From assembly GCF_024223415.1 (NCBI RefSeq), contig NZ_CP100500.1: a stretch of 64,000 nucleotides of DNA. One strand, given 5' to 3'. A program made the translations under genes and the position numbers. The notes below the pieces were generated by a model. The model ran no database searches and was not told where the DNA came from. It was given only the letters and a program-made list of their open reading frames with translations. The stretch is from Escherichia coli. Lineage in GTDB: Bacteria > Pseudomonadota > Gammaproteobacteria > Enterobacterales > Enterobacteriaceae. Shown here in pieces: positions 2,334 through 64,000 of this stretch. Each line of letters starts with the position of its first letter. Position 1 is the first letter of the stretch.

Positions 2334-2764
2334 TACTTATTTGGTGGACACCACTTTGTCTAATTCGTCAGATTCTGACCAGACGGTTCAGGCTGTACGC
2401 TTACGCCTGAAAGCTGACTGCCTCCTGCTGAGGTGGGAGGCTATGATTCAGTGCGTTTATAGTCTCCGGGGTATGCATGTACCGGAGCATACCATTTCTG
2501 GTGGATAACAAGCCGGCACATTCAGACTGCAGTGAAGATGGAGGCACCTGGTTGTGAAGAACGTTTCTGCCCGTGGCTGCTTCGCATCATCAATGGTATT
2601 CATACCCGCTCAGAAATGACCGGGTGCTGAAGCCCTCCGTTATCGCGCAGTATAATGACGTATATGATCTGTGGACGAGTGAGCGGCGTGCCTGATGTAC
2701 GCCGCTATTACTGTATTTTACCACAGGGCTGGTTTTCTGCTGCCAGCCCTGTGGTTCTCAGACA

Positions 2765-3373: not shown

Positions 3374-3460
3374 ATTCCTCACGGGGGATAACAGGCAGCA
3401 GAGCGCCGCCGGCAGGCCGGAGATTGCGTCTGCTGTGGGCGAAGGGTTAGTGGTTAAAAA

Positions 3461-3667
3461 TTACGGACGGGACTGTGCAATACGCGCCTGCAGCCAGGCT
3501 TCCACTTCACTTTTCAGCCAGCGGGAGCTGCGCCCCATTTTGATGGGCGCAGGAAAGCCCCCATCTTTGATGAGTTTGTCAAACCACTTATCGGTTAGGC
3601 CGGTCAGTTGAGTGATAAACGCCATGTCGACCATCTGGTCATCCATCAGCGAAACTGGGGTAGCCAT
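3461..3667 (-). CDS. AlpA-family phage regulatory protein (excisionase-like DNA-binding protein), about 68 aa
   Basis: MATPVSLMDDQMVDMAFITQLTGLTDKWFDKLIKDGGFPAPIKMGRSSRWLKSEVEAWL - typical AlpA/MerR-like HTH; start placed at the internal Met. Confidence 0.8.
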   Translation of the reverse strand: MATPVSLMDDQMVDMAFITQLTGLTDKWFDKLIKDGGFPAPIKMGRSSRWLKSEVEAWLQARIAQSRP

Positions 3668-4792
3668 GAGAATGTTCCTCCGGATGTTGTTAAACCAGCC
3701 GGTGTGGTCATGAAAACAGCGCGCCACCTTCACCGGCATAACAACCGGGGAGAAACGTAAAAAATAATCGGGAATGTGGCTGTCCGGAGATAAACGGGGG
3801 GATTGCGATGGCAGAGCCGTAGCGGAATCCCGGAGGGGGGTGTTGCAAAAGATGCTTCCGCACGCACGCGCGATAAAGAGGGGATAGTTTTCGTGAGGAC
3901 AGGGAGAGAAGCAGGCGTTCTGATAATTGCAGAGTTGTTTTCGGAGGTGGTTACAGTGAGTCAGCCCGTTCCTGGCGAGCAGGAGACTGATATCACCGAT
4001 GGGATAAGGTTGTCTGATTGGTATTATAAATATAAGAAGTCATCAGAGAGTAACGTAAAGGATTTGCCAGAATAACCTAAGAGAGTAAATCTCTCCGGTA
4101 ACAGAGCGCTATGAAGCATTCTGTATCAGAGTGCAGATACATGAACGCTGATGCGTAAAATCAGCAGTGACACGCCAGCTCCCCCTATGCCCATTCCTGT
4201 ATAAGACATGAACTGAGTGTATTAATGCTTCTGCCCTGAGACTGAGCCGGTGAGTGAGGGGCTGAGAAATCCCTCTTGACACAGCTCTAACCAGAAATAC
4301 TTCCCCGGTTGTTGCGGTGCGTCCGGATCCCCGATAACGGAACACTAAGGCTGTATTGCGGGACACCGGGTAAGTAGCAGCCCGTAAGGCGTTCTGTCAA
4401 CGCCAGAAAAAATGATTTCCCACACGCGTTATAGACTCACTCCTGTGGACCTGGAAGCCCGTAACTCTGCGGTTGCCCACTGACTGACGGAACTGACCGC
4501 AAATTTTACGAGTGCGTGCTGGGCTTCAGTCTGGTCACCTGAGCGTTCGGTAACGGAGGCGCGGGCGGTAATAGGCTGATTTTCAGGTATTACCGGCTTA
4601 CAGCGTGTGGTTGATATTGAGGGGCTGTGAGTTTCGCGTATTTGTCAGAAACCCAGACGAGTTTTCCTGTATGGGACGAAATAAGGCAGCGGCAATACCT
4701 GGAAAAATTTAATATGGTATGAAGGAGAACCTGTCGGTTACGCTTAATATACCCGGTACACTGTCAGCTCAGGGGATACATGAACCGTTATC

Positions 4793-4993
4793 TCACCAGC
4801 TACACAGTATATACACACTGACGCTGACAGTAGTCAGCAGGACCACAATAATCAGTGCCAGCAGTATGGTAACGATACGGTCTGTATTCCGGTAATAGCC
4901 GAAGGGGTCGACAGAACCACAATACGGGCAACACACTGTATTATGAGTAATCGCGTTTCCACAGTCCCTGCACTTCTTTTTGCGTATCACCAT
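4793..4993 (-). CDS. small zinc-ribbon protein with C-terminal transmembrane helix (about 66 aa), function unknown
   Basis: CRDCG...CCPYCG double CxxC followed by a hydrophobic stretch ILLALIIVVLLTTVSVSVYIL; GGAGGG ribosome-binding site 5 nt upstream of the ATG. Confidence 0.5.
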   Translation of the reverse strand: MVIRKKKCRDCGNAITHNTVCCPYCGSVDPFGYYRNTDRIVTILLALIIVVLLTTVSVSVYILCSW

Positions 4994-5156
4994 CACTCCC
5001 TCCTCACAGCCTTACCCGTAACCGGTTTTTTACATTAAAAAAACAACGCTGAAAATTCAACCGTCAGTCCGGAGACGACCGTTCGGGTTATCACAGAGTG
5101 CCTGAGACAGTGTCCTGCCGGAGGTCACTTCAGGGACTCTGCGCATTTTTTACGAC

Positions 5157-5762
5157 GTGGCTATTCCGTATGAACCATACGGAGATTTAACCATGACCTA
5201 CAAATACAACCCCTTCTGGCAGCAACGTATTCGTGAGACGGTGCGGCACGCACTGAATGTTCATCCCCGCCTGACGGCATTGCGGGTTGACCTGCGTTTC
5301 CCGGATGTACCGGCAGCAACGGACGCAGCTGTGATATCCCGCTTCATCAATGCCCTGAAAGCCCGAATCGACGCTTACCAGAAACGTAAGCATCGGGAAG
5401 GTAAACGCGTGCATCCCACCACCCTGCATTACGTCTGGGCCCGGGAGTTTGGGGAGTGCAAAGGTAAAAAACACTATCACCTGATGCTGCTGGTTAACCG
5501 GGATACCTGGTGTCGTGCCGGTGATTACCGTGCTCCGGGATCACTGGCCGGGATGATTAAACAGGCGTGGTGCAGTGCCCTGGGAGTGGATGTCGGGTGC
5601 CATGCCACGCTGGTGCATTTTCCGGCCTGGCCGGCGGTGTGGCTGGAACGCGATGATGACACTGGCTTTCAGCAGGTGCTGGAACGTGCTGACTATCTGG
5701 CGAAGGAACATACCAAAGCTCACTGCACCGGTGAGCGCAATTTTGGCTGTAGCCGGAGTTGA
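5157..5762 (+). CDS. HUH-type rolling-circle Rep-like protein (inovirus Gp2 / YagK-YfjJ-like family)
   Basis: 201-aa ORF with the motif KKHYHLMLLV (His-hydrophobic-His) and candidate Tyr motifs; family assignment from memory, not searched. Confidence 0.55.
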   Translation: MAIPYEPYGDLTMTYKYNPFWQQRIRETVRHALNVHPRLTALRVDLRFPDVPAATDAAVISRFINALKARIDAYQKRKHREGKRVHPTTLHYVWAREFGECKGKKHYHLMLLVNRDTWCRAGDYRAPGSLAGMIKQAWCSALGVDVGCHATLVHFPAWPAVWLERDDDTGFQQVLERADYLAKEHTKAHCTGERNFGCSRS

Positions 5763-6015
5763 GCACGACTGGCGCGCCAATATCCGGCAAACCAAAAGTA
5801 TGGGTTGTTGTCTGGCGGCAACGATGTATCCACTCGCCCACTGACTGTTTTTTACGTCAGTGTTCCATTGTGTGACAACCACAGTGCTGTAACAGCAACC
5901 AGCCTGCTTTACCCAAACTCCAGTCCAGATTTTAACTGAACCGCCATTCACACCCTGACCACGCTGCCCGTACCGGGACGGCTGTTGCCTGCGTGTCGTC
6001 TGGCGGCTGAGGAAT

Positions 6016-6423
6016 ATGACTATGTACGCAAAATCCTTTATCGCTCTTGATGGCAACGGACGTCTGACGGGCGCCCGTACTGCACAGGCCGCACCTTATG
6101 CTAACTACACCTGCCACTTGTGTGGCAGTGCACTCAGATACCATCCGCAATACGACACTGAACTTCCCTGGTTTGAACACACTGACGACAGGCTGACAGA
6201 GCACGGTCAACAGTGCCCTTATGTCAGGCCGGAGCGCAGAGAAATACAGTTGATTAAACGTCTGCAGCAATTCGTACCGGATGCCTTACCCGTGGTGCGT
6301 AAAGCCAGCTGGCACTGCAGACAATGTCACCACGATTATTATGGGGAGCGGTACTGCACACACTGCCAGACCGGAGGATTCAGTATTCCCCGGACAACTC
6401 AGGAGGAAATATGCGAATTCTGA
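6016..6423 (+). CDS. Cys-rich hypothetical protein A (putative double zinc-ribbon)
   Basis: 135-aa ORF; conserved pattern CxxC...PWFEH...C...CxxC...DYxGExxCxxC shared with the next ORF. Confidence 0.55.
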   Translation: MTMYAKSFIALDGNGRLTGARTAQAAPYANYTCHLCGSALRYHPQYDTELPWFEHTDDRLTEHGQQCPYVRPERREIQLIKRLQQFVPDALPVVRKASWHCRQCHHDYYGERYCTHCQTGGFSIPRTTQEEICEF

Positions 6424-6821
6424 ACTGTTATATGGCGAATGACAGCAAAGGCCATTTTGTTACGGCGAAAGAAGCAGCGAAGCACAACCGCCAGGACGTT
6501 TTGTGCTGTGTGTCCTGTGGATGCCCGTTAACACTTCAGCGGGGCAATGACGGACAACCACCGTGGTTTGAACATGACCAGATGACTGTCGCTGAGAAAA
6601 TCCTGCTGCGATGCACCTGGCTTGACCCGGCAGAGAAAGAGGCCCGTCGTTTGCATCTGCAGGGTATGACGGTTCCGGATTATACGGTGAAGGTGAGAAA
6701 GTGGTTTTGTGTGATGTGTGACGAAGATTATGAAGGAGAAAAGTGCTGCCCGCGTTGTGGTACCGGGGTATACAGCAGGGAGGGGGGGCTGCAGGAAGGC
6801 AACTGGAAGGATAGGAACTGA
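6411..6821 (+). CDS. Cys-rich hypothetical protein B, paralogue of A, translationally coupled
   Basis: ATG at 6411 lies just upstream of the stop of the previous ORF (6421-6423); same Cys/PWFEH pattern. Confidence 0.55.
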   Translation: MRILNCYMANDSKGHFVTAKEAAKHNRQDVLCCVSCGCPLTLQRGNDGQPPWFEHDQMTVAEKILLRCTWLDPAEKEARRLHLQGMTVPDYTVKVRKWFCVMCDEDYEGEKCCPRCGTGVYSREGGLQEGNWKDRN

Positions 6822-7024
6822 GCGGTTCAGTCGCGGAAATCAGTTGCAGAGCTGTAATGATATCTCCGGGAGTGCTGCGTTGGTAGGGGCATCCCGGGAT
6901 AGAGAAATTTTAGCACTTTGCCCTGAATGATTGTAGACGTTCCGAGTACTCGTACCGGTCTGAGTTATTACAGTTAGATATTCACTTTTTCTCCCGCATA
7001 CTTCACATCTGTCAACGACGGATG

Positions 7025-8757
7025 AAAAGTGGTTCTTCCGCAACCTGGGTGGAAGAAAATGGATGAAACTTTCTGGCGAACAAGGATCTAAGCTGTTTTA
7101 AGTTATGGGCAACGCAATGCACTCTCTTAAGACACTTCTACAGTTACCTTGCGGATGGCGATGCAGTCGACAAATTATTAGCTCTGACGGTATAACCCTC
7201 CATCTCCACGGAAAACGCAAAACAGCACAATGTCCTGAATGCTTTAAGCGTAGCGACTCTGTTCATAGTTGTCGTCGGCGCCGGATACAGCATCTACCCT
7301 GCTCAGGGCAGACGCTATGGCTTGTATTTTCCGTCCGCCACTGGTACTGCCGTAACCCGGCTTGTTCACGTAAAATTTTTGCCGAGTCGCTTGCTCCCTT
7401 CGCCGGTTCACACCAGCAGTCTTCACAGGCGTTACAAAATTTACAACGTCAACTGGGATTAATAGCTGGAGGTGAGGCTGGAAAACGGGCTGCAACGGCA
7501 GCGGGTCTCCGTTGCAGTGCTGATACTCTTCTTCGCAGGGTATCAATACCCCGGAGACGAAACAGTCAGGCGCGCCTCATGTCGGTATTGATGAGTGGGC
7601 GTGGCATCGGGGCCACTGCTGCGGTATGTTAATAGTCAATCTTGATACTCACCGTCCCCTCGTCCTGCTTCCCGGCCGTGATCAGCGTACGCTGGCGACC
7701 TGGTTCAGAAAATATCCGGAAATACAGGTTGTCTCGCGTGATCGCAGTGGAGTCTATGCGACAGCAGCACGTGAAGGTGCACCTCAGGCCAGACAGGTGG
7801 CCGATCGATGGCACCTGCTAAAAAATATTGGTGATGAGCCTGAACGAATGATGTACAGACATATGCCTCTGATACGTCTTGTTGTCAGAGAGTTATCACT
7901 GAAGAAATCACCTGAGCCAGAAATATCTGTGCCTGTAGCATCGCTCCGTCGTCTGGAACGCCTTAAACAGCACATCCGCAAAAAACGGCATCAGCGTTGG
8001 ACAGAGGTTATGGCCCTGCATAACAAGGGATGTAGTTTCAGGGAAATATCCCGTATTACAGGCCTGTCGCGAGTGACAGTCAGTCGCTGGGTGGGTTCAG
8101 GAACATTCCCTGAAATGTCAACTAGGCCTCCAAAGCGAGGGCTTCTGGACCCATGGAGGGAGTGGTTAAAAGAGCAACGAGAATGTGGTAATTATAACTC
8201 CGGCCGGATATGGCGGGAAATGGTGGCCAGGGGGGTTACAGGCAGTGAAACCATCGTCAGGGATGCTGTTGCCAAATGGCGTAAAGGCTGGATCCCACCG
8301 GTTACTACTGCCGCAAGACTTCCTTCAGTGTCCCGGGTAAGCCGCTGGTTGATGCCCTGGAGAATAATCAGGGGTGAAGAAAATTATGCTTTCCGATTTA
8401 TTAGTCTGATGTGTGAAAAAGAACCGGAGTTGAAAATAGCGCAGCAACTGGTACTCGAGTTCTACCGTATTCTGAAAACCTAAAATAAATCACAGCTAAG
8501 CAGCTGGTTCACTCGGGTCCACGAAAGCGGCTCAGCAGAACTTCGGTGCGTAGCTGCGGGGATGGAAGCTGATGCTGCGGCTATATGTGAGGCAATCAGC
8601 AGTCGCTGGAGTACTGGTGTTGTCGAAGGTCATGTAAATCGCCTGAAGGTGCTGATACGCCAGATGTATGGTCGAGCCGGACTTGAACTACTTAGGCGGA
8701 GGGTAATGAGTCCACTGGCATGAAAATCTTCACCCAGGTTGCGGAAGAGCCACTTTT
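7025..8757 (+). mobile_element. ISL3-family insertion sequence with imperfect terminal inverted repeats, decayed
   Basis: Left end aaaagtggttcttccgcaacctgggtg at about 7025-7051 and its near-perfect reverse complement at about 8731-8757; encloses an ISL3-type transposase. Confidence 0.7.
7105..8722 (+). pseudogene. ISL3-family transposase, disrupted by a frameshift near 7588 and an in-frame TAA at 8481-8483
   Basis: N-terminal zinc-finger region (CPECF...), ...IDEWAWHRGHCCGMLIVNLDTHRPL readable only after a frame change, then ...VVEGHVNRLKVLIRQMYGRAGLELLRRRV continues in frame after the stop. Confidence 0.75.
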
Positions 8758-8766
8758 GCACTGTTC

Positions 8767-9095
8767 GTGACAGTATGGCCTTTATGTACTCACTTTGTTA
8801 CCGGTAGCTGGATCATCACTACCGTGCTGCAAATGGTGGTGAACAGCATCAATTGTGGAATGAATGTTGCCGAAGCGACCAATGCGCCTCGTTTCCACTA
8901 TCAGTGGTTGCCGGACGAGCTGCGTGTTGAAAAGGGTTTAGTCCGGATACGCTCAAGCTGCTGGATGCAAAAGGTCAGAAAGTGGCGCTGAATGAGGCGA
9001 TGGGCAGCACGCAAAGCATTATGGTTGGGTCGGATGGTGAGTTGTACGGCGCATCCGACTCGCGCTTGGTGGATGATTTAACGGCGGGGTATTAA
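8767..9095 (+). pseudogene. ggt: gamma-glutamyltranspeptidase C-terminal fragment, frameshifted in an A-run near 8935
   Basis: GSWIITTVLQMVVNSI...NAPRFHYQWLPDELRVEKG then, after a 1-nt frame change, FSPDTLKLLDAKGQKVALNEAMGSTQSIMVGSDGELYGASDSRLVDDLTAGY; starts directly at the ISL3 right end. Confidence 0.7.
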
Positions 9096-9134
9096 TTGAC
9101 ATCCCCCGGCGCAATGTGCCGGGGGATAATGGTT

Positions 9135-10169
9135 TTATGCGGTCAATAATCGTCCGGGATTATCGATACAGAGTTTTTTGAGGATCGTTTTATCGACGCC
9201 GCGCTCCGCCAGATAGGCCAGAAAAACATCTGGAACAAATCCCCAGCCATTACCGCCATTTTTAGCCCACATTTGTTTAAGGAAGACATCGTGGCTGAGA
9301 ACAAGCTGATCGGCGTATCCCAACTCAATGAGATGAGCGACGGCATCGGCAGTCTCCTGCACCCCTGGCGCTATTCCCTCTTTCGGGAAGGTAATGTCTA
9401 GGCCAATCATGTCGAATTCCAGCCAGACACCTTTATCAAGCATTTTCCGCTGATACGCCACGTCTTTTCCTGACGGATCCGAGTGTGCGAGAGAGACTTT
9501 ATTTGGCGAGACGCCCATTTCACCTAACACAATGTCGAGTACTTCATCACCGCGACGAAGCCAGCCCGGCATGTGAATATTCATCGCCACATGAGGATTG
9601 TTAATCTGTGCCAGCGAGGCAGCCCGCAAGCTGTTATGCTCGGCTTCGGTAAATGTCGGTGAAACACCTATTTCACCGATCATTCCGGCACGAATATCCG
9701 TATCGCCAATCCCTTGATTCAATTCTTTATCGATCGTTGTCGCCAGTTCATCAACCGTTTTATGAATTCTCTGGCTTTCAAATTTTTCCAGGTAGGGACC
9801 GGAGGAAGCAACAATATTCAGACCTGTTTTTAATGCGACTTCTCGTAATGCCTGCGCATCTCGTCCGATAGACTCAGACCCTGTGGCATCAATAATGGTG
9901 CGACCACCGAGCGAGATAAAGTTATTGATTTCGAAGATCACATCTTCAATAGGTTTGCGGTCCATATTATCAGCGCAGCAATAAGGATCGTGTTTTAATG
10001 CCCACTGGATTTCTGCCGTGACTTTTTTATCAACAAGCCGTTGTGAAAAAGGATAGCAAGGAGCATCCACAACAGAGGAAAGATCGTTGAACAGATGTTC
10101 ATGAGGAAGTGTTAGCCCCATATCTTCACGGGCGACGGGGCCCGTCACAGTTTGTAGATAATCTTTCAT
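9135..10169 (-). CDS. phosphotriesterase-family metal-dependent hydrolase (Php-like, TIM-barrel amidohydrolase; possible lactonase)
   Basis: 344 aa; N-terminal GLTLPHEHL metal-binding motif characteristic of the PTE family. Confidence 0.8.
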   Translation of the reverse strand: MKDYLQTVTGPVAREDMGLTLPHEHLFNDLSSVVDAPCYPFSQRLVDKKVTAEIQWALKHDPYCCADNMDRKPIEDVIFEINNFISLGGRTIIDATGSESIGRDAQALREVALKTGLNIVASSGPYLEKFESQRIHKTVDELATTIDKELNQGIGDTDIRAGMIGEIGVSPTFTEAEHNSLRAASLAQINNPHVAMNIHMPGWLRRGDEVLDIVLGEMGVSPNKVSLAHSDPSGKDVAYQRKMLDKGVWLEFDMIGLDITFPKEGIAPGVQETADAVAHLIELGYADQLVLSHDVFLKQMWAKNGGNGWGFVPDVFLAYLAERGVDKTILKKLCIDNPGRLLTA

Positions 10170-10171
10170 GA

Positions 10172-11137
10172 TTATACCTCCATTTTCTTCATTGTTTTCG
10201 AGGTTCTGTATTCCGGAATAGTGGTAACAATTGCACCGACCAGTGCAAACAGTGTTCCGATGATCGTGACCAGATAAACGCTATTGCCCAGCGATGGAAT
10301 TAATACGTCAATCAATACTGATCCCAGTAACTGGCCCGCCGTTGAAGCAACCCCCAGCATCAGTAACCCCAGACCTCTGACCAAAATGGCCATTAAACCG
10401 ATAGACATTAGTCCAAGCGGGCCGCCAAGATACATCCACCAGACATCTGGTAATTGAACAGTGACGTGCCCTAATGCGACACGAATAGCAAGCGCTGTGC
10501 CTAAAACACAAAATCCAACGATGAAATTCTAGGTGATTGAAACCAGCATGGATCCCGTAGCTTCAGCTACTTTTGCATTTCCAGCGGGCTGCCATCCTGC
10601 AAGCAAACCAGCTAAGAACGGAAGAATGGCAAGTAAGATGAAAGAGGTAGAATGCCACTGAGGTGACACAACAAAAATCGTAGCAATAACCGCAAATAAT
10701 GCACCGATGATGCAATAAGGGGTAAAGTATTTTTTCTCGTCGACACCGATACCAAAGCGATCGCAAAGTAAACCAGACAGCAATAGCGCGGAGATCAGTG
10801 CGGTTTGAAACGTTGCGACCCCGAGTGCGCTGGCTGATGCGCCTTCAGAAAATACCACCATCGCTCCACAGAGACCGGCAAACCAGTTCCAGAGAGGAAC
10901 TTTTCGGTTTTTAATCAGAGAAGGAATTGCCGCAAATTGTTGCCGGGTTTCTTTTCGCGCCATAATAATAAAAAACATCACGACTAAACCACTGGCAAAG
11001 GAGATAACTGCGCATGCATTACCATCCTGTAACCAGTGACCTAATTGACCATTCACCGCTGATTGCATAGGGGAGAGCATACCCGCAAGAATCGTGGCAA
11101 GCATCCATAAGGGAGTTGAGTACTTATTCTTTTTCAT
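10172..11137 (-). pseudogene. DMT-superfamily (DUF606/YdcZ-like) membrane transporter interrupted by an in-frame amber codon at 10529-10531
   Basis: ORFs 10529..11137 and 10172..10435 are in the same frame; the sequence between them encodes hydrophobic helix-like residues; the single TAG (plus-strand cta) separates them. Confidence 0.7.
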
Positions 11138-11193
11138 ACATCAATCCTTCTATTATAGTAAATGGAGTAACTGGAGTTACCCCATTATTATTA

Positions 11194-11952
11194 TTATCTT
11201 GCAATATGAGTCAGTATATTTACCCACAACGCGGTATAGAACGGCCAGGACATAAACTGCTGTGTACCCCAGTGCGGTGAACAGTCACTCATAAAGCAGG
11301 CTATTTTCCCGTTGTGATAGTTACCAAAGACCAGTAATGGAGCGTTGTTTATTGTTAATACCACCTCAGCATTTTCTTTAGCGATCGCCCGGTTATAACC
11401 TAGGAAAAAAGGATATTCAGAGAACCCTTTAATAACTGGATGTTCAGGTTGTGATGGCTGTGCAATAACACCCTCTGGTTTTTCGACACGATCGTCACCA
11501 TCTAACATCGTAACCGGGAGCACATCAGCCAGAACTGTATTTTTATAATTGGCTTTTGCTTCAATTCCCATGAATGAGAGATAGCCGCCAATCATCAATA
11601 ACCCACCACCGTTATTCACATATTCTTTAATCAGTTCGAGAGCGTTTGGTTTTATGCGAAGCTGATAAAAAGTATCATTTTGTAGCAGGAAAGTATTACT
11701 ACCAATATCACTAATAACGATGGCATCATATTGTTCTAACTGTGCCACATCTTCAGGGAAGGCAATTTGTACCGTATGTGCTGGCATATAGGTGACATCT
11801 ACCTGACTATTTTTCAGACACTGGAGTAACCAGGTCGCACCTTCTTCATATTTACTTGAGGTAAAACTGTCATATCCTTTTGAATGAATCATATGAATAT
11901 GCCAGGATTCCCCAATAAAGAGCACTTTTAGTGATTTTTTGGTGTTATTCAT
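11194..11952 (-). CDS. ThuA-like / class I glutamine-amidotransferase-like domain protein
   Basis: 252-aa ORF; fold assignment from sequence impression only. Confidence 0.45.
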   Translation of the reverse strand: MNNTKKSLKVLFIGESWHIHMIHSKGYDSFTSSKYEEGATWLLQCLKNSQVDVTYMPAHTVQIAFPEDVAQLEQYDAIVISDIGSNTFLLQNDTFYQLRIKPNALELIKEYVNNGGGLLMIGGYLSFMGIEAKANYKNTVLADVLPVTMLDGDDRVEKPEGVIAQPSQPEHPVIKGFSEYPFFLGYNRAIAKENAEVVLTINNAPLLVFGNYHNGKIACFMSDCSPHWGTQQFMSWPFYTALWVNILTHIAR

Positions 11953-11965
11953 TCTCTGTCCCTTC

Positions 11966-13180
11966 TTAATGCGTAAAAATAGTTTGCTGATAATGTATAC
12001 TCTGAATTCGATGTATCACAGATTCATGTTCAGGCATGTCGGAAGCATTGCTTGTCTCCACCGCTAGGGATGCAAAGGCGCTGGCATAACACAGTGCTGA
12101 TTCCAGTGATTTTCCTTTCGCAAGTCCTGATGCCAGAGAGCCGTTAAACGCATCCCCGGCTCCTGCCGTATTTTTAACGACCGCTGGAAACGCTGGCGAA
12201 TGAATGAATTTTTTGCCATCAAATGCGAGCGAGCCCTTGCTACCGAGCGTGATAACCGTGTTTTTTACCCCTTTATTGTGGATAGCTTCTGCAGCTCGTT
12301 TAGCTGATTCAAGATCGTGTACGTCTATGCCGGACAGTAAACCAGCTTCTGTTTCATTGGGGGTGATATAATCAACATCCTGAATAAGTTCGTTGACGAT
12401 ATCATTATAGGGTGCCGGGTTAATAATGACCGGGATACTGTTTTTTTGCGCCAATGTGATCGCTTGTTGCAGAGCGGTATAATTTGTTTCGAGCTGCAGA
12501 AGTATGACATCAGAATTAATAATCGCTTCTTTCTGAATAGTTATTTCATCGGACGACATTGTCATGTTGGCACCGGGATAGATCGCAATAACATTATCGC
12601 CAGTACCTTCATTAACAAGGATCGTGGCAGTTCCGGTTTGCGTTTCTTTCGTTTGATAAATTATACTTTTATAAATCTTAGACGAATTCATAAAGTTGAT
12701 CGCATAATCACTAAAGTGATCTGTACCTACTTTTGTTATGAAATAAACATCAGTATCGGCAAAGCTTGCTGCCAGCGCCTGGTTACAGCCTTTTCCCCCC
12801 GGTGAAAATATAAAATTACTTGCCAGAAGCGATTCTCCGATAGTGGGAAGCCTCGGCAAATAACTGATGATATCAACATTAAACGAACCAATAACGCATA
12901 CTTGACTTTTCATAGTTGAGTGGCCTTTTTTTATTCCCTGGGCTGTATCATAATTTTCAAGCGCATAAGCGATTTCATTTTTCGCAATAGTATCAAGCGA
13001 GTCTAGGACGATAAAAGCACCGCCATGACATCGAGTCAGATAGCCAAGCCTGGCAAGTTCATTAAGATCTGAACGAATAGTTTCTTTCGTTACATTGAGG
13101 CTATTGGACAGATCGGATACTTTTACAGAACCGAATTTACTGAGTCGTTTCAATATTTCATGATGGCGTTCAAATTTCAT
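11966..13180 (-). CDS. fusion protein: N-terminal DeoR-type HTH plus PfkB/ribokinase-family carbohydrate kinase
   Basis: N-terminus HHEILKRLSKFGSVKVSDLSNSLNVTKETIRSDLNELARLGYL (DeoR HTH); kinase motifs GGKGCNQA and NTAGAGDAFNGSLASGL. Confidence 0.7.
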   Translation of the reverse strand: MKFERHHEILKRLSKFGSVKVSDLSNSLNVTKETIRSDLNELARLGYLTRCHGGAFIVLDSLDTIAKNEIAYALENYDTAQGIKKGHSTMKSQVCVIGSFNVDIISYLPRLPTIGESLLASNFIFSPGGKGCNQALAASFADTDVYFITKVGTDHFSDYAINFMNSSKIYKSIIYQTKETQTGTATILVNEGTGDNVIAIYPGANMTMSSDEITIQKEAIINSDVILLQLETNYTALQQAITLAQKNSIPVIINPAPYNDIVNELIQDVDYITPNETEAGLLSGIDVHDLESAKRAAEAIHNKGVKNTVITLGSKGSLAFDGKKFIHSPAFPAVVKNTAGAGDAFNGSLASGLAKGKSLESALCYASAFASLAVETSNASDMPEHESVIHRIQSIHYQQTIFTH

Positions 13181-13287
13181 GCTTCACCTCACTTCAGTTA
13201 CGTTAATATCTATCGATGTATATTGATGTGATAATCACCATAAAGTGGCGGGGAAAAGCAAAAAAAAGCAAAAATAGCCTGAGAAAA

Positions 13288-13850
13288 GGTAAGCGTTAAT
13301 GGAGAATCATATTGATGCTTATTTATTGGTGAGAACTACGTTCCATGGCAGGAGTTCATCAATACGGTTGGAAGGTTATTCCGGCAGTACGCTCAGGATA
13401 TGGCGCAGATACGCTTCCGGATCAATGTCGTTCAGAAGGCAAGTGCCGATAAGCCCATACAACAGTGCACTGCGCTCGCCGCCGAAGAACATAAAGTTTT
13501 TATTTCCGAGACAGATGGCACAAAGGGCTTTTTCCGCGGCATTATGTCTGCCTCCGCCTGACCGTCAACACTGTAATAACAGAGTGCGCCCCACTGATTC
13601 AGTACACAGCTGAACCATTCTCCCAGTCTGGATTTTTGGATAGCGTGGCATTTTTCTCCACCATGCATGCAGTGAGTCCAGTAACAGTTTGCTCTTCTTC
13701 TGCCTGACCACAAGATGTGCTGGACTGGTAAACGATGGGGATACCTGCTTACGCGAGAGCAATAAGTGGCTGGCCACAATTCTCGGTACAAAACTCTGCT
13801 GAATAGCAGCGATTTTCCCAGCGTGGTGCGTCGTTTTCATTTTACTGGTT
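13288..13850 (-). mobile_element. IS66-family remnant: terminal repeat (GTAAGCG at 13288) plus frameshifted 3' part of a transposase gene
   Basis: Minus-strand translation near 13327-13380 gives PSNRIDELLPWNVVLTNK*, resembling the IS66 transposase C-terminus; upstream frames are broken. Confidence 0.6.
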
Positions 13851-15230
13851 CTAAGTTAACAATTATCTGTTCACTAATGACTACTCTAAAAACTTGTATC
13901 AGGACTATCACTTATTTAAGTGATATTGGTTGTCTGGAGATTCAGGGGGCCAGTCTATAAACTTTTTACAAAAGGATGAATGCAGAAGGTTACTCTAATG
14001 GCCAGAGTGATGACAATGATGGTCAGACGTTGACCTGCAGAAACTGCATTTTAATTGGTCTATAAAGTCTGCAAGAGGAATCAGGGTCAGATCAGTGAGT
14101 CTTATCGCGGCCCGAAGCTATGACTGAAAGAAGGCTGGATACAGAATTGCAACAATTTGGCAATGTCAGAACACAGAAGCTTTGCAAGCAGGTGAAAGGT
14201 TATGTCTAGCAAAAGGAGTATATCAGAATACATCTACTGATGTACAAAACACAACAATAGCTTCATGATATATAAATACGTGATGACGAGTGGTACTCCG
14301 CATGGTTATTTAACTTCTCAGCACCACTAATGATCCTGAGCAACTTCGTATTTGGGCCATTGCCATGGAGTAGAAAGCTGTGTCTGAGAATGCAGAATTT
14401 GAGAAAAGAATTCGCTTTCTTGGAGAGCTTCTGAAAATGGCACGCTAACAACGTTTTGTTAAAAAATGTGAATCACTTGCCGGGGCTGCATTTTCTATTC
14501 GAGGAGAATGTTGACGTAGATATTACAGAAATCTCAGCGCATCAGGATAAACTGCTACCTTAGGTCAACCACCAAAAGAAAATACAATACGTCCAGTTTG
14601 TATGCCTTTAATAACACATCTTCTAAATGTTGAAGAATTATCCCGCCTGCTGAAGAACGTTGCTCTGAGTGTGATAAACCTTTTTATTCTTGATGATGTC
14701 AGCGAGAAGATGGAATATATCCCCGACTGGGTCGTGGTTACCCGGTTAAACATCTGGTGGCGCTAATAAATCTGGCAAGTCACATTCTGTTGAATGCTGT
14801 GACAGTGCCTTACCGAGAGAGCGAAATTGTGGTGTTCTAGTGCATAGTCGCCACCATTCCGGATAATTCTATTGCGTTGTTTTACAAGTTCTTTTACAGC
14901 GCAGATCTGTTGCTGACGTTGAATCAATAGCCTGGATTTCAGAACACAATGCCCGTTTGCTGGTTGGTCCGGCAGTAGCATTAATTCATTATCTGAATGA
15001 AATGTGTCAATCCACAGAAACCGCTGTCAATGACACATTTTGTCGGACGTTAACACGAGAAAGTCTGGCTATTCCGTAATGCCATCTTATTTCGTAATGG
15101 ATTGAGAATGCTGGATTTTTAATTATATTACGCGCAGTATTAATCGCGTAAATGTTTTGCGGTCAGCAACGGTGGGGGATCCATTGTTCTGTTCAATGAA
15201 TACCATCATACATTTGAATCAGGAGTCGGT

Positions 15231-28971: not shown

Positions 28972-37638
<8,667 letters not shown>

Positions 37639-41244: not shown

Positions 41245-42255
<1,011 letters not shown>

Positions 42256-53592: not shown

Positions 53593-53701
53593 ATGATAGT
53601 CGCGTCTTATCATGCCACCATTATAAAATTATCGCTGTTTTGCGGTACGCTATCGCCAGGTTATGCCAGAATCATAAAAAAGCAGGTTGGGAGTCGTCAG
53701 G

Positions 53702-56226
<2,525 letters not shown>

Positions 56227-56405
56227 TTACCAGGATGATTCTCAAAACAGCACAAATTATCAAAGATGATTTTTTCGGGAGCGATCCCGCTGACGCCAGA
56301 GCCACCAAGGGGTGACGTGCGTCACATTTCTATTCATAAGTAGCGTTAATCATTCATATAGCGAATATTTTCTTGTCAGCGAAAAAAATTGCGGATAAGG
56401 TGATG

Positions 56406-56492
56406 AACACATCAGATTTCCTGGTGTAACGAATTTTTTAAGTGCTTCTTGCTTAAGCAAGTTTCATCCCGACCCCCTCAGGGTCGGGATTT
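56406..56492 (+). ncRNA. dsrA: DsrA small regulatory RNA (activates rpoS, represses hns)
   Basis: AACACATCAGATTTCCTGGTGTAACGAATTTTTTAAGTGCTTCTTGCTTAAGCAAGTTTCATCCCGACCCCCTCAGGGTCGGGATTT matches DsrA as recalled, including its terminator. Confidence 0.9.
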
Positions 56493-56505
56493 TTTTATTG
56501 TGCAT

Positions 56506-56733
56506 TCAACGATTCACTTCAGAGACGCTGAAGTCATGAATATCCAGTTCGAAGGCATCCGCCAATTCACGCCATGTATGATATTCACGTCCATCGACGC
56601 TAACGTGTTCAGAATCGTTCTGGCTGCGATGAACCTCGCTTTCGCTAATTTCATTGATCGCCGCCAGCAGGGCATCGACATCGACGCTGACCTCACGTTT
56701 TGCGGTATCGCTGTACTCTTTTGCGGTTTTCAT
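56506..56733 (-). CDS. yodD: small stress-induced protein
   Basis: 75 aa from MKTAKEYSDTAKREVSVD. Confidence 0.85.
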   Translation of the reverse strand: MKTAKEYSDTAKREVSVDVDALLAAINEISESEVHRSQNDSEHVSVDGREYHTWRELADAFELDIHDFSVSEVNR

Positions 56734-56805
56734 CATCTTTCCTCGCAACCGTTACTCTGTTGTTGCCGCCAGTCGTTAAGTCCGCCTGGCATCTCTTAAG
56801 TATAG

Positions 56806-57084
<279 letters not shown>

Positions 57085-57127
57085 TCTTATTCAGCCTGAC
57101 TGGTGGGAAACCACCAGTCAGAATGTG

Positions 57128-57751
57128 TTAGCGCATGTTGACAAAAATACCATTAGTCACATTATCCGTCAGTCGGACGACATGGTAGATAACCTGTTTA
57201 TTATGCGTTTTGATCTTACGTTTAATATTACCTTTATGCGATGAAACGGTCTTGGCTTTGATATTCATTTGGTCAGAGATTTGAATGGTTCCCTGACCTG
57301 CCATCCACATTCGCAACATACTCGATTCGGTTCGGCTCAATGATAACGTCGGCATATTTAAAAAAGAGGTTATCGTTGTCTCTTTTTTCAGAATATCGCC
57401 AAGGATATCGTCGAGAGATTCCGGTTTAATCGATTTAGAACTTATCAATAAATTTTTTCTGACCAATAGATATTCATCAAAATGAACATTGGCAATTGCC
57501 ATAAAAACGATAAATAACGTATTGGGATGTTGATTAATGATGTGCTTGATGTGCTGACTGTTAGAAGCATCATGGATGAAACAGTCCTCATTAATAAACA
57601 CCACTGAAGGGCGCTGTGAATCACAAGCTATGGCAAGGTCATCAACGGTTTCAATGTCGTTGATTTCTCTTTTTTTAACCCCTCTACTCAACAGATACCC
57701 GGTTAAACCTAGTCGGGTGTAACTACATAAATCCATAATAATCGTTGACAT
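57128..57751 (-). CDS. rcsA: LuxR-type auxiliary regulator of capsule synthesis
   Basis: 207 aa, [24 protein letters not shown]. Confidence 0.95.
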
Positions 57752-58040
57752 GGCATACCCTCACTCAATGCGTAACGATAATTCCCCTTACCTGAATATT
57801 TCATCATGACTAAACGGAACAACATGGGTCACCTAATGCGCCACTCTCGCGATTTTTCAGGCGGACTTACTATCCCGTAAAGTGTTGTATAATTTGCCTG
57901 GAATTGTCTTAAAGTAAAGTAAATGTTGCGATATGTGAGTGAGCTTAAAACAAATATTTCGCCGCAGGAGTATCCTGGAAGATGTTCGTAGGTATTATTT
58001 TTCGGATAATCCTTAGGATAACATGATAAACGTTACGGAA

Positions 58041-58826
58041 TTATATTAATGGCAATTCACTAATAATATCAGCCAGCAAATTAAACATCTCACTGAATAA
58101 ATGTTCGCAAAAAGGCGCAATTAACGGCATTAATGCCGCCATTAAAGAGATACCGACAGTCAGAGTTAATGGAAATCCAATAACAAAAATGGATAATTGC
58201 GGGGCCATACGATTCAGTAAACCTAATGCCAGATTCAGGGTCAGCAGCAGAGTAATGAGCGGTAACGCCAGCATCAGCCCGTTAAGGAAAATCAAACTCC
58301 CTGCTTTGGTGAGTGCCAGAAACGCATTGCTGTTCAACGGTTCGCCACCAATCGGCAGGGTGTGAAAGGTATCGACCAGCAGTGAAATCAACCATAAATG
58401 ACCGTTAAATGTCAGGAACAGCAGTAACGCCAGCATATCCATGATACGCGCTAGAACGGGCATGTTGAGATGGCTGGCCGGATCGACAAACGTCGCAAAT
58501 GACAGCCCCATTTGCAGACCGATAATTTCGCCAGCGGTTCGCACAGCGGCAAAGGCAAATTGCATGGTGAAACCAAGCGCAATGCCGATCAGGATCTGCT
58601 GCACGGCCAGCCACAGAGCAAAGAACGAAAAAACAGGAACATCGTTGGCAGGTAATGATGGGGCAATAGCGAACGTGATCATCATTGCCAGACCCAGTTT
58701 TACCCGCTTCGGCACGCTGCGTTCGCTCAGAATTGGCGCGGTAGAAATGAGCGCCAGCACGCGCAGTAACGGCCAGAAGTACAGACTTAGCCAGGAAAGC
58801 CATTGATCGCTTGTCACCTGCAACAT
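58041..58826 (-). CDS. fliR: flagellar export apparatus protein FliR
   Basis: 261 aa from [19 protein letters not shown]. Confidence 0.9.
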
Positions 58827-58833
58827 AGTACGG

Positions 58834-59103
58834 CTACCCGATGGTATACGGCAGGTTAGTGAACAAGGTGCGGACGTAATCCAGCAACAGATTGAGCATC
58901 CACGGTCCGGCAATAATAATGGCAATAAATACGGCGATGATTTTCGGAATAAACGACAGCGTCATTTCGTTAATCTGGGTGGCGGCCTGCAAAATACTGA
59001 TGATAAGGCCCGTGACCAACGCTACCAACAATAGCGGGGCAGCCAGTGCCAGCGCGACTTTCATCGCTTCAGTCCCCATCATCATGACCGATTCAGGTGT
59101 CAT
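58834..59103 (-). CDS. fliQ: flagellar export apparatus protein FliQ
   Basis: 89 aa. Confidence 0.95.
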
Positions 59104-59112
59104 TTTGCCTCT

Positions 59113-59850
59113 CTAGCTGTAAAAGCTCTGCGCCAGCGAACCGACCAGCAATTGCCAGCCATCCACCAGTACAAACAGCATCAGTTTAAAGGGCAGAGCA
59201 ATGGTGGCGGGGGGAACCATCATCATCCCTAATGCCATCAACACGCTGGCTATCACCAGGTCGATAATCAAAAAAGGGATGAAAATCGTGAAGCCTATCT
59301 GAAATGCGGTTTTCAACTCGCTGGTCACGTAGGCCGGGAGCAAAATGCGCATCGGCACGGCTTCAGGTCCCTGCAACGGGTCGGTATTCGCTAGTCTGGC
59401 AAACAACCCTAAATCTGCCTCACGGGTCTGACGCAGCATAAACTCACGTAGCGGCTGCGCCCCTTTTTCCAGCGCCTCCTGCATTGATATTTTCTCTTCG
59501 CTGAATGGCTGGTACGCATCGACATAAATTTTGTCGATCACCGGTGACATAATAAAAAAGGTCAAAAATAGTGCCAGCCCCAGCAATACCTGGTTAGGTG
59601 GCGCGGAGGGCGTTCCCAGCGCGTTACGCAATAAACCAAAAACAATGATGATGCGGGTGAAACTGGTCATCATCAGTAAAATTGCCGGAATAAACGTCAA
59701 CGAGGTGATGAACACCAGCGTCTGCACCGGGAGCGACCAGCTTTGTCCACCGCCAGGCAGCGGCTGGCTGGTGATACCCGGCAGTTGCGCGAAGGCGAGG
59801 GGCGTAACCAGCCAGAGAAGGACAGGTGCGATAGACAACAAACGACGCAT
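59113..59850 (-). CDS. fliP: flagellar export apparatus protein FliP
   Basis: 245 aa with signal peptide. Confidence 0.95.
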
Positions 59851-60218
59851 CAGGATCTCCCACTACGCTTAAGCAAATTTTTCATGACCGACTGAAAATC
59901 GGTTTGCGGTATCTCTTCTGTTGGTGCTGAAGGGGGAAGTTTATGCAGCAGATTGATTTGCCCTGCGGTAACGCCGAGCACCAGCCGTGCATCTTCCACA
60001 TCGACCACCACAACCCGTTCACGCGCGCCCAGCGAAGCACTGGCGCTAATTTTCAGACCGTTAACGCCAGTGCGTTTCGGGGCAAATCCCAACCGTTTTA
60101 CCAGCCAGGCAGCAGCGAGGATCAGGGCAATAATGGCGATGAGTGCGCCGCTGACCTGCAGCAGTGGCGCAGCAGAAACCGGCGTGGAAGATTGCACAGT
60201 AGCGTGGTTATTCATCAC
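59850..60218 (-). CDS. fliO: flagellar protein FliO
   Basis: About 121 aa, single TM; operon position. Confidence 0.85.
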
Positions 60219-60631
60219 TAACGGCTCAGGCGACGCATTCGCTCAGACGGAGTAATGATATCGGTGATCCGCACGCCATATTTATCGGCAACGACCACCA
60301 CTTCGCCCTGGGCGATTAAATAACCGTTGATCAGAATATCCAGTGGTTCGCCCGCCAGACCGTCCAGCGCCACGACGGACCCTTGCGTCAGACGCAACAG
60401 CTCTTTGATGGTCATCCGCGTACGGCCCAGCTCGACGGTCAGCTTGACCGGAATATCCATTATCAGGTCGATATCCTGCAACGTTCCGCTGACATCACCA
60501 CCGCCAAATTGCTGGAACACCGCGTCGGCAGCGCTTTTGCTGCTGGTTGATTTTTGTTCGCTCAACGCTTCAGCCCACAGATCGTCCATTGCGCCGTTGT
60601 TGTCATCGGCCGGATTATTCATGTCACTCAT
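60218..60631 (-). CDS. fliN: flagellar motor switch protein FliN
   Basis: 137 aa. Confidence 0.95.
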   Translation of the reverse strand: MSDMNNPADDNNGAMDDLWAEALSEQKSTSSKSAADAVFQQFGGGDVSGTLQDIDLIMDIPVKLTVELGRTRMTIKELLRLTQGSVVALDGLAGEPLDILINGYLIAQGEVVVVADKYGVRITDIITPSERMRRLSR

Positions 60632-61632
60632 TTGGGCTGTTCCTCGTTCAGAGAATTTAAAATCGGGTTAATCAAATGTTCTATCCGTAACGCATACTGA
60701 CCGTTGAGAGTGCCGTACTGACTGGTCAGCACCGGGACGCCGTCAACATGGGCGATGATGCGATCGGGTTTTTCTATCGGCAGGACGTCGCCGGGTTTCA
60801 GTTTTAAAATCTGCGACAGGCGTAGCGAGATATCGGCAAAGTTGGCGACCAGCTCCAGCTGTGAATGCTGCACCTGGCGCACCAGGTTATCGCGCCAGTT
60901 CTGATCTTCATTACGCGAGTTTTCCAGCGGCGGGTTAACCAACAATTCCCGTAGCGGCTCGATCATGCTGAATGGCAGACAGATATTAAATTCGCCGGTC
61001 AGGTTGCCAATCTCCACATGGAACGGCGTGTTAACCACAATGTCGTTCGGCGAGGTGGTGATATTGGTAAATTTCACCTGCATTTCCGAACGCACGTACT
61101 CAACTTCCAGCGGATTAATCGCCTTCCAGGCGTCGCTATAGCCTTCAAGCGCCAGCTTTAACATGCGGTTGATGACGCGCTGTTCGGTATGGGTAAACTC
61201 GCGACCTTCCACTTTGGTCGGGAAGCGTCCATCGCCGCCAAACAGGTTATCCACGGCGATAAACACCAGACTCGGTGAAAACACCACCAGCCCTGTGCCG
61301 CGCAGCGGTTTCAGATGGATAAGGTTCAGGTTGGTCGGCACCGGCAGGTTGCGGGCAAATTCATGGTACGGCTGAATGCGGATGGCCCCGACGGTTATAT
61401 CCGGGCTACGACGCAGCAGGTTGAACAGCCCCATACGAAAATGGCGGGCAAAGCGCTCATTAATGATTTCCAGCGCCTGCAAACGTTCGCGCACAACCCG
61501 TCGTTGGGTATTCGGATCGTACGGACGAATGTCACTTTCGCCGCTAACACTGGCTGTCGGTTCGTCTTTGACTTCGCTGTCACCATTCAACAGCGCATCA
61601 ATTTCAGCTTGAGAAAGAATACTATCGCCCAT
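60628..61632 (-). CDS. fliM: flagellar motor switch protein FliM
   Basis: 334 aa from MGDSILSQAEIDALL. Confidence 0.95.
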   Translation of the reverse strand: MGDSILSQAEIDALLNGDSEVKDEPTASVSGESDIRPYDPNTQRRVVRERLQALEIINERFARHFRMGLFNLLRRSPDITVGAIRIQPYHEFARNLPVPTNLNLIHLKPLRGTGLVVFSPSLVFIAVDNLFGGDGRFPTKVEGREFTHTEQRVINRMLKLALEGYSDAWKAINPLEVEYVRSEMQVKFTNITTSPNDIVVNTPFHVEIGNLTGEFNICLPFSMIEPLRELLVNPPLENSRNEDQNWRDNLVRQVQHSQLELVANFADISLRLSQILKLKPGDVLPIEKPDRIIAHVDGVPVLTSQYGTLNGQYALRIEHLINPILNSLNEEQPK

Positions 61633-61636
61633 GTCG

Positions 61637-62101
61637 TTATCGCAGAATAAAAGCGGTATACAGCACGTCGGTGACATCCTGTTTCGGTTGCCCGGCAACA
61701 AGCGGGGTGGAAAGCGTGGTTTTAATCTCGGCAATCAGGTTTTTCTTGCCTTCTTCTGTCGCCAGTACGGCAGCATCCTGACGCGAAAACAGTAACAGCA
61801 AACGGCTACGGACTTCCGGCAAATACTCACTCAGCCGCGAGCGGGTAGCTTCATCTTTCAGGCGCAGGGTTATGCCGATATAAAGTACGCGATCTGCATC
61901 GCCCAGATTGACCGTAAAGGTATCCAGCGCATAGAAGACCGGGGAGGGCACGACGCGTTGCTGCGCTTTGTCGTCAGCGGCAACCTGATGCGAATGCCAG
62001 TAGCTGTAACCTGCGCTGGCACAGGCCGCGAGGGTAATGAATACCAGAATCGGGATCCAAAGCGATCGCTTGCTTTTCTTGCTTATCGCGTAATCAGTCA
62101 T
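61637..62101 (-). CDS. fliL: flagellar basal-body-associated protein FliL
   Basis: 154 aa. Confidence 0.95.
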
Positions 62102-62205
62102 GTGTTGCGGTCTTCCTGTGTCGCTACTGCTTATCGGCTAATTATCCTGCGTCTTGAGCGCAACAAAGCGGGGAAAAGACGCGGATTACGGTGCTACCTC
62201 TGACG

Positions 62206-63333
62206 TTAGGCGAAAATATCAACGCCGCTGTTGCCTGTTACACGTACTTGTAAAGAGACGGGAACCGGAAGCGTATCGTCGTCTTCCCCCGCCAGAGGTT
62301 CATGGTTTGCTGTGCGTTGGCTTTGCTGTTGCTGGGAAGCGGCCTGCTGCTGACCACTAAAGCTTTCGCCACTGATGTTGCTTTGCCCTAACTGAATGCC
62401 ACTTTCGGCCAGCTGCGTTCGCAGTACCGGAAGCGCTGCTTCCAGGGCGGCGCGTACGTGTTGATGCGGTGAAACCATCTGGATTTGCGCCTGGTTATCA
62501 TCCACTTTGAGGGAGATTTGCACTTCACCTAAATCCTGCGGGTGCAGACGCAACTCTGCACTTTGTTGCCCCTGGCGGGTGAACAGCGAAATATGCTGGC
62601 TTAATGATTGTTGCCATTCGTGAGAACCCAGCGGTGCACTCAACACAGGCGCGGCGACGGTGGGCAGTGGCTGTGTCTGGTGTGGAGTGATTAGCGGGCT
62701 GGCGGCAGCGGTCACCGGTGAAGGTGTGCTGATGACTTCCGCTTTACTCTGGGCTTCTGCTACCAGCGGTGTTAATGGCTGAGCTGGCGTGCCGGGGGCA
62801 TCATCAGGCTGTGCTGTTGTGAGTTGCGCAGAAGTCAGTTTTGTGAAGAGCGTTGGTTTCTCTGCCGGTAACACGGTTGACGGCACATCAGTCACTTTGG
62901 GCGTATTGTCAAAACCCGGCAACATCGCAAAAAGGGCGCTCAGGCTTGCGGTGACGTCTTCATTCAGATCATCCGCTTTTTCGTCTTTTGCCGTATTGTT
63001 GCCAGCCACCGCAGCCAACGTCATCGTTTGAGCGGTGGTTAATGGTGTTGATGTGGATTGTTCGTCGTTGATGACAGGCGGTGTTTCATCCACGGGGATC
63101 AGTAAATCCGCTTGTTGCGCGTCGGCAAGAATATCGCTGATCAGCGGCTCGCCTTTTGTCGTGGGCTTATCTGTTGCCACCAGCAACTGGGGGGCCGCTT
63201 TGTCGGTAGTTGTCTCGCCTGCTAATGCTTCGCTCAACAACGCGAGAAAATCTTGTGCAGCATCGCTGGCTTTGCCGCCAGGCAATGTGGTGGTGTCAAC
63301 GTCGGCGGTAATTAAGGGCGCTAAGCGAATCAT
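62206..63333 (-). CDS. fliK: flagellar hook-length control protein FliK
   Basis: 375 aa, Pro/Gln/Thr-rich. Confidence 0.9.
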
Positions 63334-63773
63334 TCAGGTTTCCTCATGGCGGCGCGCTGGGCGAACTCATCCATCTTTTTCTGATCGAGGCGGTTTTCTG
63401 CAAGCAGTGCCGCCGTGGATTGCCGTTCCTGCAGTGTCTGCCAGGCCTGCAAACGTTGTTTCTTTTCTCGCCAGCTGTTCAGGGCAATGTCAACTTTCTG
63501 CGTCCACTGATTAAGTTGCTGGCGATGCTGAGTAATGGCTTTTTCCAGCGTCTGGATAAACTGCTGATAGTTGATCCAGCGGTTGCTGGTCATCCCGGCA
63601 CTCATATCGCTGTTGAGGTTATTGCGATATTCATTCTGATAATCGATCAGCATTTTGAGCTGTTCTTCCGCCTGCTGACACCCGCGACGCATTTCACCCA
63701 GCAGGCGCGCGGCATCCTCTACCTCTTTTTCTGCCAGATCTTTCAGGGTCGCCAGCGCGCCATGTTCTGCCAT
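63330..63773 (-). CDS. fliJ: flagellar export chaperone FliJ
   Basis: 147 aa coiled-coil protein. Confidence 0.9.
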
Positions 63774-63791
63774 CTGCCGTTATCTCCTGGG

Positions 63792-64000
63792 TTATGACAC
63801 TGTCGGGAAAATACGCTCCAGCCCCTGGAGAGACGCTTCCCAGTCCGCACGTTCAAAAATGCCTTGTTGCAAATAGCCCTCCAGCTGCGGCCACAGGGCG
63901 ATGGCTTTGTCGAGCATCGGATCGCTGCCTTTGGCATACGCGCCGACGCTAACCAGATCGCGGTTACGCTGAAAACTCGACAACAGCTGTTTGAAGGTGC
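63792..64000 (-). CDS. fliI: flagellum-specific ATPase FliI, C-terminal part only (gene continues beyond the window)
   Basis: C-terminal sequence ...[14 protein letters not shown]; frame open to the window edge. Confidence 0.8.

Follow-up and report, generated by a model that had tools for sequence, protein, structure and literature searches.

The sigma28-type -10 box upstream of fliL in Escherichia coli very probably belongs to the known FliA secondary promoter of fliLMNOPQR

The fliK-fliL intergenic region

The right end of the window (the whole 64-kb stretch of E. coli DNA that was analysed) carries, on the minus strand, the flagellar genes fliJ, fliK, fliL, fliM, fliN, fliO, fliP, fliQ and fliR. 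Positions 53599-64000 are colinear, in the same coordinates, with the annotated genome NZ_CP025849.1, and many complete E. coli genomes match a 1.1-kb query across fliK and fliL at 100% identity, with fliK, fliL and fliM annotated beneath the match. At the other end of the window, positions 1-14934 have no counterpart at the colinear place in NZ_CP025849.1, and around 33100-34100 there are repeated partial matches to a stretch of that genome annotated as yeeJ, an inverse-autotransporter pseudogene. The subject of the present work is the spacer at 62102-62205, which is the whole of the fliK-fliL intergenic region (104 nt) and is bounded by the following features:

62208..62206, minus strand: stop codon TAA of fliK
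62112..62117, minus strand: Shine-Dalgarno sequence AGGAAG of fliL, retained in transcripts from either of the starts predicted below
62101..62099, minus strand: start codon ATG of fliL
61637..62101, minus strand: coding sequence of fliL, first gene of the fliLMNOPQR operon, which reaches fliR at 58041

A sigma28-type promoter upstream of fliL

An original prediction, made from the sequence of the window, placed a sigma28-type -10 element on the minus strand at 62131-62138, about 30 bp upstream of fliL, and described the accompanying -35 match as weak. All three points hold. The octamer GCCGATAA reads 62138..62131, ends 29 nt ahead of the fliL ATG and agrees at every base with the sigma28 -10 consensus and its conserved CGA core (PMC2859248), and the -35-like octamer upstream of it agrees with the consensus at only half of its positions. 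The elements are:

62150..62157, minus strand: sigma28 -35-like octamer TCAAGACG, 4/8 to the consensus TAAAGTTT, 11 nt from the -10 octamer
62131..62138, minus strand: sigma28 (FliA) -10 octamer GCCGATAA, 8/8 to the consensus including the CGA core
62123..62127, minus strand: predicted start of the sigma28 transcript, at about A62125, 6 bp 3' of the octamer as in the aer promoter

The two octamers are separated by CAGGATAATTA, which has the 11-nt length of a sigma28 spacer. Poor as it is, TCAAGACG retains T1, A3 and G5 of the -35 consensus, the positions at which mutations cripple the sigma28 promoter of aer (PMC2859248). In that promoter, the start of which has been mapped, the CGA lies at -11 to -9 and transcription begins 6 bp beyond the octamer (PMC2859248). 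By the same geometry, a sigma28 transcript of fliL is predicted to begin at about A62125 and to carry a 24-nt leader that keeps the AGGAAG Shine-Dalgarno sequence (62117..62112). The supplementary data of Cho 2014 and of Kim 2012 give no transcript start near fliL, and Zhao 2007 makes no mention of fliL.

The -35 region also takes part in a 7-bp inverted repeat, GCGTCTT/AAGACGC (62178-62184 and 62149-62155, minus strand), which links TCAAGACG with the right arm of the FlhDC box described below and has a fold z of -1.8. The repeat is found in Escherichia, in Erwinia typographi (where it is 8 bp long), in Mangrovibacter and in some Pluralibacter, is missing from most genera and has a single compensatory version, CGCCTT/AAGGCG. 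It was considered as a conserved structure over the sigma28 -35 and rejected as too patchy across genera.

The overlapping FlhDC/sigma70 promoter

A second set of promoter elements overlaps the first:

62166..62207, minus strand: FlhDC-box region AACGTCAGAGGTAGCA - N10 - CGTCTTTTCCCCGCTT, overlapping the stop codon of fliK
62141..62146, minus strand: hexamer GATAAT, the inferred -10 of a class 2 sigma70 promoter, 5/6 to TATAAT and lying within the sigma28 spacer
62133..62136, minus strand: predicted sigma70 start, at about 62134/5, some 7 nt after GATAAT by standard geometry and inside the sigma28 -10 box

For comparison across genera we assembled 67 enterobacterial fliL loci, one genome per species, by means of peptide patterns, a scan that missed Salmonella. 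GATAAT is kept in 65 of these 67 loci, as CGGGATAATCA. In the literature on fliL the FliA promoter is preceded by a sigma70 promoter, and a generic scan for sigma70 promoters and terminators over 61900-62500 gave no match, as expected because an activator-dependent promoter would have a poor -35. Given its wide conservation, we take GATAAT to be the probable sigma70 -10 of the FlhDC-dependent promoter, in keeping with the published position of the FliA promoter as the downstream one of the two and with the lack of a good -35. A sigma70-type -10 with a poor -35 is the arrangement that a class 2 promoter requires, and here GATAAT is joined by no -35 that passes the scan.

Further upstream, the block AACG..GGTAGC..CGTCTTTTCC..GCTTTG (62207-62166) is nearly invariant in 64 distinct enterobacterial upstream regions. 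Its agreement with the FlhDC consensus AAYGSSNNAAATAGCG-N10-12-CGCTATTTNNSSCRTT at 62207..62166 is 19/28, which is at the level of chance in 64 kb, and the authors of the published FlhD/FlhC ChIP-seq study themselves describe the FlhDC motif as degenerate. Since the consensus match is no better than chance, the assignment of the box rests on its conservation, on the position of the best consensus match in the orthologues, which is the same relative to the gene (-106/-107 from the ATG, 20-21/28), and on the ChIP-seq peak. The centre of that peak, 2017573, has scores of 38/27, the highest in its table, and corresponds to about 62172 of the window. A different FlhDC box is listed for fliL in a genomic SELEX study (PMC9962212, Table 1), where AAAGCGCAGCAACGCGTCGTGC...CCGGTCTTCTACGCGCT falls inside the fliL coding sequence at about 61940-61985, outside the conserved intergenic block beneath the FlhDC ChIP-seq peak.

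Between the sigma70 start region and the gene, the fliL leader (62111-62133, minus strand) contains the blocks ATAAGC[A/T]GTA and ACAGGAAG, which are kept across genera, including those that have lost the sigma28 box; ACAGGAAG is present in almost all of the enterobacterial loci compared. This conservation suggests that something other than FliA constrains the region of the sigma70 start or the 5'UTR. No Rfam family was matched, the sole hits being eukaryotic snoRNAs below threshold, which are noise. The predicted folds of the two 5'UTRs show no more structure than shuffled sequences do (z about -0.4), and we dropped the possibility that transcripts from the two starts differ in leader structure.

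The match to sigma28 promoters in relation to chance

The bare octamer is not enriched in the window, where five copies of GCCGATAA are found against 2.18 expected. The copies other than that at fliL are:

13445-13452, plus strand: GCCGATAA
41659-41666, plus strand: GCCGATAA
54324-54331, minus strand: GCCGATAA
60282-60289, minus strand: GCCGATAA, within fliN

By transferred annotation the copy at 41659 is antisense within msrP and that at 54324 antisense within dgcQ, while around the copy at 13445 the window is not colinear with the reference NZ_CP025849.1. The best composite of -35 and -10 that can be built on any of these three scores 14.0 bits (41640-41667, plus strand), below the fliL site, on the second of the two weight matrices described here.

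How the fliL site ranks depends on the search. One for TAAAGTTT-N11-GCCGATAA with up to three mismatches passed over it, the site having four mismatches in its -35. A first weight matrix, which included the 11 spacer columns and was noisy, ranked it only 8th in the window. A second matrix was built from 48 published FliA sites with the spacer masked and the fliL site left out, and known sites were scored by leave-one-out. On this masked matrix the fliL site reaches 14.7 bits, of which the -35 contributes 2.9 and the -10 contributes 11.9, and comes 2nd of the 127,946 positions in the window. Among real FliA-bound sites it is 26th of 49, a mid-range rank, and the -35 elements of several of those sites (fliA, ves, yafY) score below the 2.9 bits found at fliL.

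Simulated 64-kb windows contain on average 0.55 hits as good as this one, and 37% of them contain at least one; a sigma28-type hit somewhere in such a window is unremarkable. Within a spacer of 104 nt and on the correct strand, by contrast, about 0.0003 such hits would be expected, so that the match goes beyond chance once its position is counted.

The best hit of the masked matrix in the window lies elsewhere, at 60257-60284 (minus strand, 16.6 bits, TAAATATGGCGTGCGGATCACCGATATC). It is inside fliN, in the sense orientation near the 3' end of the gene and just upstream of fliO, and encodes the invariant peptide DKYGVRITDII. This hit looks like a by-product of the coding sequence, because its synonymous sites differ freely among 65 loci and the FliA ChIP-seq table lists no peak there.

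Conservation among E. coli genomes and across genera

Of 5171 E. coli genomes, 5169 carry the 104-nt spacer at 99% identity or more; the 1.1-kb query, which includes the fliK and fliL coding flanks, attains this level in just 1392 of 5172. Six Escherichia lineages were sampled (that of the window and five others, including E. albertii and E. whittamii), and in all of them the octamer is unchanged while the -35 and the spacer vary.

Among the 67 loci, an exact GCCGATAA at -37 is confined to Escherichia and to three genomes of the Citrobacter amalonaticus group, and 16 of 65 loci retain the CGA core. The masked-matrix scores are bimodal, at 12.7-14.7 bits in Escherichia and the C. amalonaticus group and at 6.5 bits or less in every other genus. 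Position 4 of the box is the most variable column (G in 25, C in 15, T in 17 and A in 8), and the CC and ATAA that flank it are kept far better. In many Enterobacteriaceae GCCNATAAG stands two bases past GATAAT, and in Escherichia and the C. amalonaticus group alone its N is G, which makes a sigma28 -10 box; close relatives are one base off at this position, carrying GCCCATAA (C. sedlakii), GCCAATAA or GCCTATAA.

According to a published study (10.1101/188474), the fliL promoter is the one core flagellar FliA promoter that lacks conservation, and in Salmonella FliA does not bind it. Judged from the aligned loci, the bimodality of the scores independently reproduces that non-conservation.

Three records in the comparison stand apart. 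One titled 'Chryseobacterium sp. 18061' (CACSKA010000001.1) has an enterobacterial fliL locus and is probably mislabelled or contaminated, because its upstream region is nearly identical to that of 'Citrobacter sp. 18056', with two base differences in the aligned part. In Buttiauxella agrestis and B. massiliensis the fliL upstream region is wholly different and has neither GATAAT nor an FlhDC-type block, other Buttiauxella fliL loci having the standard layout; the two divergent loci may belong to a second flagellar gene set.

FliA binding and fliL expression in K-12

The whole element, TCAAGACG-N11-GCCGATAA-G at 62157..62130, reads TCAAGACGCAGGATAATTAGCCGATAAG and is base for base the FliA ChIP-seq motif published for fliLMNOPQR in K-12. 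Fitzgerald, Bonocora and Wade (2014; PMC4183435, Table 2) list a FliA peak at 2017629 of MG1655, with the motif centred at 2017601 and a Fold Above Threshold score of 18; the offset of the motif from the peak centre is that expected for the holoenzyme. The same paper credits the first demonstration of FliA-driven fliL transcription to Liu & Matsumura 1996, and concludes that FliA can drive fliLMNOPQR from a complex promoter 'supported by our findings'. On these grounds the fliL box is very probably the -10 of the already known secondary FliA (sigma28) promoter of E. coli fliLMNOPQR.

The original prediction had gone on to read the box as class-3 input into the operon, and this needs qualification. 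An input from FliA is upheld by the identical ChIP-seq site and by FliA-driven RNA in a flhD deletion strain, in which overexpression of FliA raises fliL RNA significantly, by less than for other targets of both regulators (PMC4183435). That input is small, however: in exponential growth in LB, fliL RNA stands at 989 in the wild type and 980 in a fliA deletion (PMC4183435). The strict sense of class 3, in which expression is lost in a fliA mutant, does not apply to fliL with these values, and the operon is class 2 or '2/3'; in a 2023 eLife paper fliL serves as 'a representative Class 2/3 promoter'. Expression of fliLMNOPQR is essentially FlhDC/sigma70 dependent, because fliL RNA falls from 509 to 1-2 in flhD and flhC deletion strains (published FlhD/FlhC ChIP-seq study). 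In a fusion of the fliL promoter FliA-dependent activity was undetectable, for which the authors blame the strong sigma70 promoter (10.1101/188474), and overexpression of FliA in a fliA deletion strain lowers fliL RNA 2.1-fold, for which competition for the DNA has been suggested (PMC4183435). The FliA promoter of fliL is, then, already known and ordinary, and has little share in steady-state expression.

Comparison with known sigma28 promoters

With the fliLMNOPQR FliA promoter of E. coli K-12 there is identity throughout: the same TCAAGACGCAGGATAATTAGCCGATAAG at the same site before fliL, next to the same FlhDC site. The only difference is the strain: the window shows the K-12 element as it stands in the genome of a different E. 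coli.

The dual promoter of fliAZY (FlhDC/sigma70 and FliA) has the same nested layout, with a sigma70-type GGATAAT in the sigma28 spacer, and like fliL it has a poor sigma28 -35. The gap between the two -10 elements is 3 nt at fliA (GGATAAT-CAT-GCCGATAA) and 2 nt at fliL (GGATAAT-TA-GCCGATAA). The two nevertheless differ in their response: fliA RNA drops from 1257 to 15 in a fliA deletion and its ChIP score is 91, against 989 to 980 and a score of 18 for fliL (PMC4183435). The FliA site of flgKL shares with fliL the TCAAG at the start of its -35, the consensus GCCGATAA and the 11-nt spacer (PMC4183435, Table 2); unlike fliL it has no GATAAT-type hexamer, and its ChIP score is 47. In the fliA deletion flgKL RNA goes from 318 to 138, a drop not flagged as significant (PMC4183435). 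The class 3 promoters of tar, motA, tsr and fliC (TAAAGTTT-N11-GCCGATAA) have the same -10 octamer and spacer length as fliL, but their -35 elements score 7-9 bits against 2.9, and they are fully or almost fully FliA dependent whereas fliL depends on FlhDC.

Discussion

A consensus -10, a degenerate -35 and an 11-nt spacer would together allow FliA holoenzyme to start transcription at about 62125 and leave the fliL ribosome-binding site in the transcript. The identical K-12 sequence is occupied in vivo by FliA holoenzyme and supports transcription of fliL without FlhDC (PMC4183435). As the sigma28 -35, spacer and -10 span GATAAT and the probable sigma70 start, with the FlhDC box just upstream, the sigma28 and sigma70 holoenzymes would be expected to bind mutually exclusively, because both need overlapping DNA. 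In growing cells nearly all fliL transcription would come from FlhDC and sigma70, and the FliA promoter would add a small FlhDC-independent input, completing a feed-forward path from FlhDC through FliA to fliL. The fliL promoter was reportedly used in the feed-forward work of Kalir and colleagues. As cited, that work describes a feed-forward loop in which additive FlhDC and FliA inputs prolong flagellar expression as FlhDC falls (Kalir et al. 2005). At very high FliA activity, FliA holoenzyme may compete with the stronger sigma70 promoter.

Several other accounts of the box have to be weighed. That it is a chance 8-mer to which FliA does not bind is highly improbable: the count of 5 copies of the 8-mer in the window against 2.2 expected, the higher-scoring composite that seems to have arisen inside fliN purely from coding and the equal hit to be found in 37% of random 64-kb windows would all fit such a view, but the position-specific expectation is only about 0.0003 and published ChIP-seq places FliA on the exact sequence. 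It is possible, though on balance improbable, that the site does bind FliA and has no selected function, GCCNATAAG being kept for other reasons (as part of the sigma70 start region or 5'UTR) and N = G making a box by chance. This would agree with the variability of box position 4 between far better kept CC and ATAA flanks, with close relatives that differ at that one base, with fliL RNA that is unaffected by deletion of fliA and with a site that is neither conserved nor bound in Salmonella (10.1101/188474); most E. coli FliA sites are, moreover, reported to be non-conserved and without regulatory effect (10.1101/188474; PMC4183435). It agrees less well with the effect of FliA overexpression, which shifts fliL RNA both ways, with the recurrence of the nested layout at fliA or with the invariance of the site in Escherichia and its near-invariance in 5171 E. 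coli genomes, although six lineages are statistically uncompelling.

A FliA holoenzyme that initiates poorly might instead act as a brake, blocking the FlhDC/sigma70 promoter and so providing late negative feedback on the basal-body and export genes. Such a role would account for the 2.1-fold cut in fliL RNA on overexpression of FliA in a fliA deletion, where the authors speculate on competition at the DNA level, and for fliL being restored least among the dual targets when FliA is overexpressed in a flhD deletion; it would also suit the sequence, in which the sigma28 promoter, from its -35 through the spacer to its -10, extends over both the sigma70 -10 and the probable sigma70 start. We nonetheless regard it as quite unlikely, since the effect is seen under overexpression only, fliL RNA is equal in the wild type and the fliA deletion, and the reporter work, as cited, has additive activation by FlhDC and FliA. 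A related idea, which we offer tentatively and hold to be doubtful, is that the box is a one-base, lineage-specific switch, in which G at the N of GCCNATAAG brings FliA input and the overlapping site, in the lineages that have it, serves mainly for late negative feedback by occlusion of the FlhDC/sigma70 promoter and less as an activating class 3 input. If this were true, the novelty would be limited to the one-base toggle and its spread over the phylogeny, since competition has already been proposed in print and the lack of conservation in Salmonella already reported.

The reading that we prefer, a known secondary FliA promoter nested in the FlhDC-dependent one, confirms for this genome the standard regulatory region of E. 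coli fliL, namely an FlhDC box, a sigma70 promoter and an overlapping FliA promoter, and beyond correct annotation it is of little importance. The literature already asks whether binding of FliA at fliL increases, extends or reduces the expression of the genes for the C-ring and the export gate, and for this question the one-base difference between close relatives suggests a clean natural experiment.
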